Below, one piece after another: positions 6,273 to 9,274 of a stretch of DNA of 40,508 nt. Position numbers and translations under genes: made by a program. The notes under the pieces were generated by a model. It had not been told where the DNA came from. It saw only the letters and a program-made list of their open reading frames with translations, and did not search any database. Source of the stretch: a virus; the IMG/VR virus record IMGVR_UViG_3300029385_000008. One strand, 5' to 3'. Position 1 is the stretch's first letter; every line of letters starts with the position of its first letter.

Positions 6273-6417
6273 GCTTGCTGAAATCCAAGCGACCGCAAGT
6301 TTCAACACAACCCTAAACACAACCCTATCGCAAAAATTCACAGCATATCACAAAACATCACACAAAACAAAAACAGCTATCAAACCACGCATTTACGCAA
6401 TTTAATAGCTGTTTTGC

Positions 6418-6493
6418 TGGAGCTGCTAACCGGGCTTGAACCGGTGACCTCGTCCTTACCAAGGACGTGCTCTACCTACTGAGCCATAGCAGC
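6418..6493 (-). tRNA. tRNA-Thr (anticodon GGT), 76 nt with encoded CCA
   Basis: The reverse complement reads GCTGCTA-TG-GCTC-AGTAGGTA-GAGC-A-CGTCC-TTGGTAA-GGACG-AGGTC-ACCGG-TTCAAGC-CCGGT-TAGCAGC-T-CCA. All four stems are perfect, with GG in the D loop and TTCAAGC in the T loop. Confidence 0.93.
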
Positions 6494-6512
6494 AAACCAA
6501 TTACAGTAATAT

Positions 6513-6541
6513 ATTATACACTATCTCTGCCGCTTTGTCAA
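6513..6541 (-). promoter_or_regulatory. Perfect sigma-70-type promoter for tRNA-Thr
   Basis: On the minus strand: TTGACA (6541-6536), 17-nt spacer, TATAAT (6518-6513). The tRNA starts 19 nt after the -10. Confidence 0.8.
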
Positions 6542-6559
6542 GCCCTTTTCACAACTTTT

Positions 6560-7450
6560 TTACTCTATTCCCTCATCATCATCGTCATCTGCCTGAACAC
6601 TTGGGTCGTAATCATCGTATGTGTCCATAAAATTGTACTTCTTACCCTTGTATTCGTATTGTATCACAGTGCGCAGATTGACGTTGTAAACGCTCTTGAA
6701 AATATTGTTTTCAATGTTGGGATTGGTGGCACGAAACTTTGCTATAAGCTCCTTCATTTCCTGCCGCTTTGATACCTCACCCTTTTTCTCTGACCCCTCG
6801 TAGCTCTCAGTGAAACGGCAGGCACAGCGGATAAAATGCAGATCGTTCTGCTCCACCCAGCGGATAATGTCCGCCTCTTTCACCATGTACAGTGGTCTGA
6901 TAAGCTCCATGCCTGCGTAGTTCCTCGAGCGTAGCTTCGGCATCATAGTCTGAATCTGTCCTCCATATACCATGCTCATGAGTATGGTTTCTATAACATC
7001 ATCAAAATGATGTCCCAAAGCTATCTTGTTGCACCCAAGATCCTGTGCAAATTTGTAAAGCCAGCCACGCCTCATTCTTGCACAAAGATAGCATGGGTTG
7101 CGTTTTGTGTTGTATGCAATGTCAAAGACTTTCGTCTCAAACATCTTTATGGGTATGCCCATAAGCGCCGCATTGTCGATTATCCTCTGCCTGTTTGCGT
7201 CGCTGTAACCGGGGTTCATTACAATAAACTCCAGCCCTATGTCCATGCCCTGATATTTCTGCAAATGCTGCATACACTTAGCAAGAAGCATTGAGTCCTT
7301 GCCGCCTGATATGCACACCGCTATTTTGTCCCCTGGCTTTATCATATCGTAACGCTCATATCCCATAACGAACTTGTTCCATATATCTCTGCGAAAATCA
7401 GTAACGATGCTCCGCTCTATCTTCTGCTGTGGCGTCAATATTCTTGACAT
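6560..7450 (-). CDS. ttcA: TtcA-family PP-loop ATPase (tRNA 2-thiocytidine synthase-like), acidic C-tail
   Basis: PP-loop CISGGKDS. Cys motifs CYLCARMRR and CACRF are typical of the Fe-S TtcA/TtuA group. 296 aa. Confidence 0.8.
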   Translation of the reverse strand: MSRILTPQQKIERSIVTDFRRDIWNKFVMGYERYDMIKPGDKIAVCISGGKDSMLLAKCMQHLQKYQGMDIGLEFIVMNPGYSDANRQRIIDNAALMGIPIKMFETKVFDIAYNTKRNPCYLCARMRRGWLYKFAQDLGCNKIALGHHFDDVIETILMSMVYGGQIQTMMPKLRSRNYAGMELIRPLYMVKEADIIRWVEQNDLHFIRCACRFTESYEGSEKKGEVSKRQEMKELIAKFRATNPNIENNIFKSVYNVNLRTVIQYEYKGKKYNFMDTYDDYDPSVQADDDDDEGIE

Positions 7451-7480
7451 CTCAAACTCTCCTTAAAATCATATACTTAA

Positions 7481-7549
7481 ATTCTACTATTTTTATGGAA
7501 ATTTGTCAACCATATTCATGTTGACATTATATTGTGATATTGTTATAAT
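7481..7549. promoter_or_regulatory. Back-to-back divergent promoters for the TtcA-like (minus) and CYTH (plus) genes
   Basis: Minus strand: TTGACA (7509-7504), 17 nt, TAGAAT (7486-7481). Plus strand: TTGACA (7521-7526), 17 nt, TGtTATAAT (7541-7549). Confidence 0.7.
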
Positions 7550-7578
7550 AGAATAAAGTATTAAAGCAGGAGGATATT

Positions 7579-8136
7579 ATGAGCGAAAATATAGAACGTG
7601 AGATAAAAATTTCTCTCACACAGGAGCAGTACAAGACCGCCGAAAAGCTTTTTCAGTGGGGCAAAATAATAGAGCAGACCAATTTTTATTATATTCCACA
7701 GCAGGATACGGGCATGACAAGTATCCGTGTCAGGCAGATAGGCGAAAAGTATTTTTTGCAGCTTAAAGCACCTATCTCCGAAAACGGTGCGCTTCATGTG
7801 AAAAAAGAGTATGAACAACAGCTTGACAGCCTGCCTGAAACGCTCACCGCACAGGAGCTTTCACAGCTTGTGGGGAGAGATTTCCCTGCCGCTGACCTTG
7901 CAGGCTCTTTGCATACTCAGCGCAAGCTCTGCACCGATTTTGACCATGTTGAGATATGCCTTGACAAAAGCGAATATCTCGGCTTGACAGACTATGAGCT
8001 GGAGCTTGAATATACAGCCGACTATCCCGAAAAGCCTTTGGAGATACTGAAAAATGCAGGTATCACACAGGGAGAAGCGGTAATAGGCAAGTATGCAAGA
8101 TTTATGGATAGGGCTAAAAAGCTTGGTAAGTGCTGA
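7579..8136 (+). CDS. CYTH-domain (triphosphate tunnel metalloenzyme) protein (185 aa)
   Basis: N-terminal ExExK signature (EREIKI), later acidic strands (YELELEY) and a size typical of CYTH; RBS GCAGGAGGA. Confidence 0.75.
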   Translation: MSENIEREIKISLTQEQYKTAEKLFQWGKIIEQTNFYYIPQQDTGMTSIRVRQIGEKYFLQLKAPISENGALHVKKEYEQQLDSLPETLTAQELSQLVGRDFPAADLAGSLHTQRKLCTDFDHVEICLDKSEYLGLTDYELELEYTADYPEKPLEILKNAGITQGEAVIGKYARFMDRAKKLGKC

Positions 8137-8295
8137 TTTTCGCCTATCTGCGGTCATTTTCTATGAAAAAGCACCCACAGCCTGCAAAGGTTTGGGCAAT
8201 AATGATAATTGACAGTGACGTTATAATATGTTATTATATTAAAGTGTTAAAACGTATGAAATGGTATTTTGACGATACCCGAAAGGAAGTTAATA

Positions 8296-9150
8296 ATGAA
8301 AAGATCTATTTTTAAGACTATCGCATCACTTTCCGCTGCTGCCATGATGCTTTTGGCTGTAGGCTGCGGAAGCACATCTGATTCTTCATCAGTAGCAGGC
8401 ACAAACAGCACAGCCGCTGCAACAGGTGAGGATAACTCACTTCAGAAAGTTCTTGATTCAGGCAAGCTTGTGCTTGGTCTTGACCCAACATTCAAGCCAA
8501 TGGGCTACACAGACGAGAACGACAACATTGTAGGCTTTGATATCGACGTTGCAAAGGAAGTTTGCTCAAGACTTGGTGTAGAGCTTGAAACTTACTCTGT
8601 AAACTGGGATACAAAGGAGCAGGACCTTAATGCCGGCACAATAGATTGTATCTGGAACGGCCTTTCTGTCAGCGATGAGAGAAAGAAAGTAATGCTCATG
8701 AGCGAGCCTTACATGAAGAATGAAATGGTGTTCGTTGTAAACGGCTCAAGCGACGTTGCTTCACAGGCTGATCTTGCAGGCAAGAACATTGCCGTACAGA
8801 ACGGCTCAACAGCACAGGAAACACTTCTTGCATCTGACGTTGTAGCAAATGGTGCGACAACAACAGAGCTTGCAACAAATGTTGAAGCCCTCCAGCAGCT
8901 GGAGCTTAACATGGTAGACGCAGCGTTCCTTGACTCAGTAGTTGCAAACTACGAGATATCCACATCAGGCAAGGATTACAAGGTGCTTCCTGACGGCCTT
9001 GACCCAGAGGAGTACGCTATCGGCTTCAGACTTGGCGATCAGGCACTTTGCGACAAGATCGAGGAGATCCTTCACGAAATGAAGCAGGACGGCAAGCTCG
9101 CTGAGATATCAACAACTTGGTTCGGAAGCGACATCACGACCATAGAATAA
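8296..9150 (+). CDS. Amino-acid-type ABC transporter substrate-binding lipoprotein (orphan; no permease or ATPase nearby)
   Basis: Signal peptide with lipobox LAVGC. The mature part resembles family-3 SBPs (LVLGLDPTFKPMGY..., DCIWNGLS..). Start chosen at the ATG with AAAGGAAG RBS rather than track start 8269. Confidence 0.8.
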   Translation: MKRSIFKTIASLSAAAMMLLAVGCGSTSDSSSVAGTNSTAAATGEDNSLQKVLDSGKLVLGLDPTFKPMGYTDENDNIVGFDIDVAKEVCSRLGVELETYSVNWDTKEQDLNAGTIDCIWNGLSVSDERKKVMLMSEPYMKNEMVFVVNGSSDVASQADLAGKNIAVQNGSTAQETLLASDVVANGATTTELATNVEALQQLELNMVDAAFLDSVVANYEISTSGKDYKVLPDGLDPEEYAIGFRLGDQALCDKIEEILHEMKQDGKLAEISTTWFGSDITTIE

Positions 9151-9165
9151 TCACAAAAACATTCA

Positions 9166-9198
9166 ATCGGACAGTCTTCGGGCTGTCCGATTTTTTTT
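9166..9198 (+). terminator. Rho-independent terminator after the SBP gene
   Basis: atcggacag/ctgtccgat stem followed by T8. Confidence 0.85.
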
Positions 9199-9228
9199 GC
9201 TTGATTAAGTTTTTCTGCGTGTCATATC

Positions 9229-9274
9229 TTTAGAAAATAAAAAGTCTCGCAAACAACGTGTTTACGAGACTTTT
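9229..9274 (-). terminator. Long hairpin terminator directly after the tRNA-Ser 3' fragment (minus-strand sense)
   Basis: 16-bp stem aaaagtctcgcaaaca/tgtttacgagactttt (one mismatch). On the minus strand it is followed by TTTTTATTTTCT. Confidence 0.7.

Follow-up and report, generated by a model that had tools for sequence, protein, structure and literature searches.

A closed phage record holds Hominimerdicola aceti chromosome between two prophages and is probably a repeat-induced assembly cycle

Results and discussion

The IMG/VR virus record IMGVR_UViG_3300029385_000008 (40,508 nucleotides; this whole stretch of DNA is called the window below) has the appearance of a closed phage genome, and between its lysis genes and its integrase gene it contains a block of about 3 kb with a tRNA-Thr gene and genes for a TtcA-like enzyme, a CYTH-domain protein and a solute-binding protein (SBP) lipoprotein. 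We found that this block is a 2.9-kb piece of the chromosome of Hominimerdicola aceti (Oscillospiraceae) lying between two tRNA attachment sites, and that its two borders are the junctions of two different prophages, termed here phage A (at tRNA-Thr) and phage B (at tRNA-Ser). The circle itself is very probably a cycle of the assembly that was closed by a repeat present in both prophages.

The 3-kb block is host chromosome

In the public collection, exact copies of the TtcA-like protein were indexed in 4,084 blocks, with contigs reaching more than 1 Mb, and exact copies of the SBP protein in 6,405 blocks, with chromosomal contigs of up to 3.1 Mb. The host gene order, gltB-gltD-tRNA-Thr-TtcA-CYTH-SBP-tRNA-Ser-GGDEF, was constant whether or not a phage was present, and the phage-free loci (L001, L003, L008, L009, L013, L015, L016 and L020) had the same block between gltD and the GGDEF gene. 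BLAST comparison of the window with these phage-free loci gave homology over exactly 6415-9292 (2,878 bp) at 97-99.5% identity, with the left edge at the 3’ end of tRNA-Thr and the right edge at the end of the tRNA-Ser core. The TtcA-like protein was 99% identical in a cultured H. aceti isolate and 57-69% identical across other Clostridia genomes.

The initial annotation of the window, which was made from the sequence alone, had remarked that the block resembles DNA on the host side of an integration junction and had proposed a search of bacterial genomes for the order tRNA-Ser/SBP/CYTH/ttcA/tRNA-Thr without a phage. Such synteny was found in the phage-free chromosomes, and these loci together with the att junctions described below show that the remark was correct. 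The extent of 6281-9274 given for the block holds in part: host DNA occupies 6415-9292, whereas 6281-6414 belongs to the P arm of phage A and includes its terminator.

Gene and RNA calls agreed with the four genes that had been placed between the lysis end and the integrase gene. The tRNA-Thr(GGT) gene (6418-6493, minus strand) was called by ARAGORN and matched the Rfam tRNA family with 69.9 bits; an Rfam scan of 5900-9500 returned tRNA alone, plus two sub-threshold chance matches. The product of the next gene (6560-7450, minus strand) is a PP-loop ATPase with a match to PF01171, and is called TtcA-like here with the reservation that its score against the NCBIfam TtcA equivalog, 183 bits, is under the 272-bit cutoff. 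The gene of the CYTH-domain protein (7579-8136, plus strand) lies between the TtcA-like and SBP genes in all host contigs. The SBP_bac_3 lipoprotein gene (8269-9150, plus strand), described as an orphan in the window, is an orphan in the host chromosome too, with no permease or ATPase genes adjacent. Near-consensus promoters and terminators had also been reported for the block, and both were confirmed; the promoters at 7521-7549 (plus strand) and 6541-6513 (minus strand) scored 12/12, and those at 7509-7481 (minus strand) and 8209-8237 (plus strand) scored 11/12. The GC content of the block was not distinct from that of the rest of the window. The genes of the block appear to serve ordinary host jobs, not phage functions.

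A TtcA relative is encoded in only 6 of 2.9 million IMG/VR contigs, and five of the six are this host locus; in the four IMG/VR contigs examined in detail (L128-L131) the TtcA-like gene adjoins a prophage. None of the GenBank phage records searched carried the block at high identity, the only matches being to tRNAs and, at 66-73%, to unannotated ‘UNVERIFIED’ virome scaffolds. The records MT836984.1 and MT836245.1 (L153 and L154; ‘UNVERIFIED Bacteriophage sp.’) contain a TtcA-like gene with 57% amino acid identity or an SBP-like gene with 71%, have nothing else in common with the window or its relatives, and look like bacterial DNA deposited as phage.

The right border is the attL of phage B at tRNA-Ser

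The right border of the block is the left prophage junction (attL) of phage B, which integrates at tRNA-Ser. Its core (9275-9292, minus strand; TGGCGGAGAAGGAGGGAT) consists of the last 18 nucleotides of the host tRNA-Ser(GGA) and has a single occurrence in the window. The initial annotation had taken this tRNA-Ser 3’ end as the core of a phage attachment site (attP), but in the window it is the core of an attL. Beyond the core lie the P’ arm of the attP(Ser) of phage B (9293-9442), with CGTGTAC direct repeats and the second copy of a 36-nucleotide similarity that is considered below, and the gene of the tRNA-Ser-specific tyrosine integrase int391 (9443-10618, minus strand), which is the sole integrase in the window. 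The body of phage B (10619-40385, plus strand) follows, with a lysogeny module, replication and terminase genes, and head and tail genes up to the tape-measure gene.

Identity of chromosomal phage B lysogens (L002, L014 and L019) to the window was 99.98% over a stretch that begins at 6415 and extends to 17-19 kb (up to 19150). Phage B is continuous from int to the head genes on the 523-kb contig L126, and L041 is 98.7% identical to the window from 27316 onward. In the phage-free locus L001, a full tRNA-Ser stands at the site where homology to the window ends (9292). The right end of phage B was seen in L041 and L149, in which the tape-measure gene (840 aa) is followed in turn by three genes of 122, 359 and 122 aa, a fibre gene of 714 aa and a GH25 endolysin gene, after which come a 126-nucleotide arm, a full tRNA-Ser (attR, the right prophage junction) and the GGDEF gene. 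The 122-aa tail protein is very widespread (13,464 blocks of the public collection). Phage B’s own far end, that is, its fibre C-terminus, GH25 endolysin and P arm, is missing from the window.

A block-free attP(Ser), predicted as the 126-nucleotide arm, the core and the sequence from 9293 on, was matched exactly in the IMG/VR contigs L134 and L135, and in L135 this junction is flanked by the GH25 end and by int391. One core fits all forms of the Ser site, namely the empty bacterial site (attB) in L001, attP in L134 and L135, attL in the window and L002, and attR in L041 and L149.

In some relatives the attP(Ser) cassette (arm-core-arm) is inverted relative to the integrase gene (L023, 10848-11087; L021 and L026, about 10847-11021; compare 9275-9449 of the window). 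The core of these three, ATCTCTCCATCTCCGCCA, differs at 2 of 18 positions, and their integrase is 98% identical to that of the window; such relatives may use another tRNA-Ser gene as their site or insert themselves the other way round. Both attP(Ser) arms (9417-9437 in the window and about 18150-18185 in L041) contain ATCGTGTA[CA]AA..CGTGTAC direct repeats in the same orientation, which are candidate arm-type binding sites of the integrase.

The left border is the attR of phage A at tRNA-Thr

The left border is the attR of a different phage, phage A, which integrates at tRNA-Thr and whose integrase, int389, is outside the window. In the attP(Thr) contigs L024, L027 and L028, the lysis-HTH-M78 end of the phage runs directly into the gene of a 389-aa integrase with no block in between, and L024 and L027 agree with the window at 99.6-100% identity as far as 6463, beyond which come the P’ arm and int389. 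Because the agreement of all three contigs with the window breaks off after 6463, the attP(Thr) core can be placed at 6418-6463 (minus strand), the 46-nucleotide 3’ part of tRNA-Thr; in the window these positions form the attR(Thr) core. Five further IMG/VR contigs also join the ends of phage A without the block. The predicted attL(Thr), composed of the gltD flank, the core, the P’ arm and int389, was matched exactly in the metagenome contig L133, which has host DNA on one side and the int389 phage on the other.

The junction of the lysis-HTH-M78 end with tRNA-Thr was present in ten chromosomal contigs of 200-530 kb (L031-L040), and in these no phage of the B family was found beside the SBP gene at tRNA-Ser. 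A per-base comparison of the window with A-type lysogens showed 100% identity from 2102 on. The P arm of phage A (6182-6417) contains a hairpin with a T-run at 6370-6415 (minus strand), a phage A-supplied terminator for the reconstituted tRNA-Thr. As at the Ser site, one core fits all forms of the Thr site: attB in L001, attP in L024, L027 and L028, attL in L133, and attR in the window, L025 and L031-L040.

A tblastn search of the window with int389 found no second integrase, the only one being int391, and the two integrases are only 25% identical. Because int391 is alone on the circle and nothing encoded there could make the tRNA-Thr junction, a second phage is required.

The part of phage A that is present in the window, its right end (1849-6417, plus strand), extends from the C-terminal part of the fibre gene through the P arm. 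It includes a holin gene (3706-4173), a CHAP endolysin gene (4177-4857), an HTH gene (5049-5405, plus strand) and an M78 gene (5412-5942, plus strand), a region with Pfam hits, as well as an open reading frame of 37 aa (about 6068-6181) and a terminator (6224-6268). The HTH/M78 (ImmA/IrrE-like) pair at 5049-5942, downstream of the lysis genes, is a second such pair besides that of the lysogeny module (about 12467-13317, minus strand), and is conserved at the end of many relatives with differing integrases. An apparent absence of the exact 176-aa M78 protein from long chromosomal contigs was dropped as evidence, being a start-codon artefact (168 versus 176 aa from identical DNA).

Phages A and B occur as a double lysogen and have an identical tail-gene repeat

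A look-up of the exact 698-aa fibre protein returned two contigs, L141 and L142. The first of these, a chromosomal contig of 166 kb, is a true double lysogen in which phage A, tRNA-Thr, the block and phage B stand side by side. In L141, phage A has its own, different head and tail genes and a tape measure of 937 aa (TMP937), followed by the genes of the 698-aa fibre, CHAP, HTH and M78, then by tRNA-Thr, TtcA, CYTH and SBP, and then by the integrase and lysogeny module of phage B. Between position 21 of the window and at least 13418, where the compared stretch stops, L141 shows no difference from the window, and all seven mismatches lie at 40373-20. The A-block-B arrangement was also seen in L029 and L030.

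The ends of the window overlap exactly: 1-123 and 40386-40508 are a 100% identical direct repeat, which was the basis for calling the record a closed circle and which leaves a unit of 40,385 bp. This closed unit holds a full set of phage genes, with the replication, packaging and structural genes of phage B and the lysis genes of phage A. The cycle closes within a longer repeat, since phage A (in L141) and phage B (in L041, L043, L044 and L149) share an exact run of 1,828 nucleotides that corresponds to about 21-1848 of the window (plus strand) and covers distal tail genes and the first 530 or so nucleotides of the fibre gene. BLAST extents put the shared region at 40369-2481, whereas fine mapping showed only about 21-1848 to be exact. 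The window is 100% identical to the phage B references L041, L043 and L044 from before 39800 up to 1848. These data show that phages A and B are mosaic relatives with an identical distal tail stretch. With the window taken as the chromosomal path from the phage A copy of the repeat to the phage B copy, the two copies are spaced 40,385 bp apart.

The circle is best explained as an assembly cycle

The explanation that we strongly favour is that the window represents host chromosome between two prophages and that its circular form is a repeat-induced assembly cycle. In the source strain, both tRNA attachment sites would be occupied, by prophages A and B in the same orientation. Prophage A (int389, 46-nucleotide core) would lie on the left, its lysis/HTH/M78 end abutting tRNA-Thr as attR, and prophage B (int391, 18-nucleotide core) on the right, its integrase abutting the SBP gene as attL. 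The assembled path would then start at the repeat in phage A, cross that phage’s right end and the host block, and run through almost the whole of phage B to the repeat copy there, and because the two repeat copies are identical it would close on itself. The closure would thus have arisen in the assembly graph and not in a cell.

The break of the window precedes the first position of the exact repeat by 20 nucleotides and lies 5 nucleotides after the point at which A-type sequences become alignable, and a random break that near the repeat boundary has a chance of about 0.1%. The terminal overlap of 123 nucleotides suggests an assembler k of about 124, and from its length L141 would be expected to end at about position 109 of the window, just inside the second repeat copy. 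L029 and L030, which come from other samples, cross both junctions and end near 1954 and 2329, a short distance beyond the right-hand limit of the repeat (1848), in the mosaic zone of the fibre gene. L142 (40,394 nucleotides, from the sister sample JGI 3300029384) matches the window over 22 kb with 100% identity; by coordinate arithmetic it runs about once round the same cycle and is broken near 14,555, inside a short segment of the early region (14465-14685) that is also present in A-type phages. A passage in bioRxiv 10.1101/2021.05.25.445656 describes metagenome assembly graphs as ‘riddled with spurious cycles’.

Several observations weigh against an origin of the circle in the assembly. A cycle formed in silico and a physical circle give exactly the same sequence, and the closure recurs in the independently assembled L142, a recurrence that a real molecule would explain too. 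The break point does not coincide with the start of the exact repeat as located with L141 but lies 20 nucleotides away from it. The circle carries a complete set of phage functions, and its 40.4 kb could plausibly fit a headful. Finally, RecA or a phage recombinase would find a good substrate in the perfect 1.8-kb direct repeats, which are separated by 40 kb.

A physical circle would be formed by a RecA or phage recombinase crossover between the 1.83-kb repeats, looping out a 40.4-kb hybrid phage genome, and we consider this unlikely though not negligible. It has in its favour the perfect direct repeats 40.4 kb apart on the chromosome, the retention of a full replication, packaging, structural and lysis gene set, the assembly of the same cycle from at least one other sample (L142), and the recombination of temperate phages with resident prophages, which is well documented (passages in PMC3945230). 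However, the sequence is explained equally well without any such molecule, contig ends lie at A/B homology boundaries, showing that the chromosomal branches were in the graph, and no GenBank phage or virome record was found with the block at high identity. The circle would also contain attR(Thr) and attL(Ser) but no functional attP, so that its own integrase could not establish lysogeny, and the loop-out would leave the chromosome without the block and without this tRNA-Thr(GGT) gene. It is similarly doubtful that the hybrid of the phage B body, the phage A lysis end and tRNA-Thr/TtcA/CYTH/SBP is a recurring specialised-transducing phage, competent for replication and packaging and produced without illegitimate recombination. 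We regard as very improbable a chimera of strains, in which an A-only and a B-only strain were joined via the host block and the tail repeat and the sample contained no double lysogen. Single lysogens are indeed common (A only in L025 and L031-L040; B only in L002, L010, L014 and L019), but the 166-kb double lysogen L141 is identical to the window over 13.4 kb with both junctions included, and at least four independent assemblies (the window, L029, L030 and L142) are unbroken through both junctions, where a mix of strains would branch.

The initial annotation had left two readings, and the first, that the block is phage cargo (a moron) in which tRNA-Thr, TtcA, CYTH and SBP form an auxiliary or lysogenic-conversion kit, can be given almost no weight. 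Although the genes are intact, have strong promoters and terminators, and occupy the usual position of a moron beside att, identical genes are present in identical order in phage-free chromosomes, the borders coincide to the base with tRNA att cores, and a TtcA relative is as rare in IMG/VR as noted above. It had been suggested that related phages be compared for conservation of the block as cargo, but attP junctions without the block exist for both phages. We dropped the cargo reading because the exact proteins occur in thousands of chromosomal contigs and in phage-free loci. The second reading, an aberrant excision in the style of lambda gal/bio or a chimeric assembly that captured host flank, stands as far as captured host DNA and a chimeric assembly are concerned; illegitimate excision falls away, as both borders are canonical att junctions. 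Its proposed substrate, a 36-nucleotide similarity between 6371-6406 and 9331-9366, does exist (28/36 identical), and host DNA adjoins attL as in lambda gal. Both copies, however, lie in phage arms outside the block, so that recombination between them would remove it, and the element that closes the circle is the 1.83-kb tail-gene repeat far away. Moreover, the left border is a canonical attR(Thr) that is also found in more than ten chromosomal contigs without phage B at tRNA-Ser, its formation needs int389, which is not on the circle, and 6370-6415 is the phage A terminator for tRNA-Thr. Excision of prophage B alone by this route is therefore extremely improbable.

Comparison with known systems

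An assembly cycle over two neighbouring prophages combines features of two known situations. Like other adjacent double lysogens (polylysogeny), the locus has canonical attL and attR sites at two tRNA 3’ ends, a tyrosine integrase for each phage, an unchanged host interval, and prophages that are mosaic relatives with identical segments. Nothing essential differs, except that the sites here are just 2.9 kb apart and the repeat lets the interval pass as phage DNA. Like other spurious assembly cycles, it has an exact repeat longer than k that occurs twice on one chromosome, a contig that corresponds to the path from copy to copy, a terminal overlap of the size of k and a break next to the repeat boundary; the difference is that the cycle here holds a near-complete set of phage genes and so passes as a complete phage genome. 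In all likelihood, then, the window reflects ordinary polylysogeny at two neighbouring tRNA sites together with a repeat-induced false circle, and not a new phage feature.

Transducing genomes of the lambda gal/bio type arise by aberrant excision according to the Campbell model. The window resembles them in that host DNA that borders one att junction is linked to the greater part of a prophage whose far end is missing. In contrast to them, its second border is the attR of another phage and not an illegitimate novel joint, the join is made through 1.8 kb of perfect homology, and the molecule itself is hypothetical. Lateral transduction, in which DNA is packaged in situ from an unexcised prophage, occurs in Staphylococcus aureus and in Salmonella P22-like phages. 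By analogy, packaging from unexcised phage A would take the lysis end, tRNA-Thr-TtcA-CYTH-SBP and then the left arm of phage B, but it would yield linear headfuls, whereas the window is a closed circle.

The case is a cautionary one for the cataloguing of phage genomes. A perfect terminal overlap together with a full phage gene set would score as a complete circular phage genome, and three host genes and a tRNA would then enter catalogues as auxiliary or lysogenic-conversion genes. At least one further public assembly (L142) contains the same cycle, and some prophage calls in IMG/VR take in this host block. Neighbouring prophages with a common repeat can create false circles, for which a simple test is to ask whether both borders are att junctions of different integrases. 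If, on the other hand, a physical loop-out did take place, it would represent a homology-based route to specialised transduction, and its recovery from more than one gut sample would mean that the hybrid is repeatedly produced or circulating.

Other elements at the tRNA sites and further features of the window

The tRNA-Thr/tRNA-Ser pair, 2.9 kb apart in H. aceti, is a much-used integration hot spot, where at least six different elements were seen (in L004, L018, L034, L006, L007, L017, L022 and L038), among them a PhdYeFM-ParE-int-DUF927 element, an Mrr-carrying phage, a Mu_F-carrying phage, an FtsK/Rep element at tRNA-Thr, a NUDIX insertion and an rve transposase with a Tn916-like element. 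In L012 (11036-12333), L129 and L131, a phage whose integrase is 83% identical to int389 lies at tRNA-Thr in the opposite orientation, with int beside the tRNA, and this L012-type phage has a terminator-bearing arm of about 85 nucleotides in common with phage A. L131 combines an L012-type phage with phage B at tRNA-Ser, so that several double-occupancy combinations of the two sites exist.

The motif behind the 36-nucleotide similarity, CAAAC[AC]ACG..TTTACG, occurs a third time, in the host terminator that lies immediately downstream of tRNA-Ser. The copies at 9245-9270, 9336-9360 and 6376-6400 all lie beside tRNA 3’ ends or att cores, and may be remnants of tRNA terminators that att arms have carried along.

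Adjoining int in phage B is a restriction-endonuclease-like gene with DUF3644 and EC042_2821 domains (10882-11874, minus strand), which lies in the lowest-GC stretch of the window (0.30-0.34) and is probably a defence moron of phage B. Relatives carry Mrr, SNIPE, RNase_T or HIRAN in its place. Upstream of the terminase genes, at 25209-25534, a repeat of about 38 nucleotides (ATGCAG...) occurs three times with spacings of 127 and 161 nucleotides, and these repeats could be iterons or a packaging-related site.

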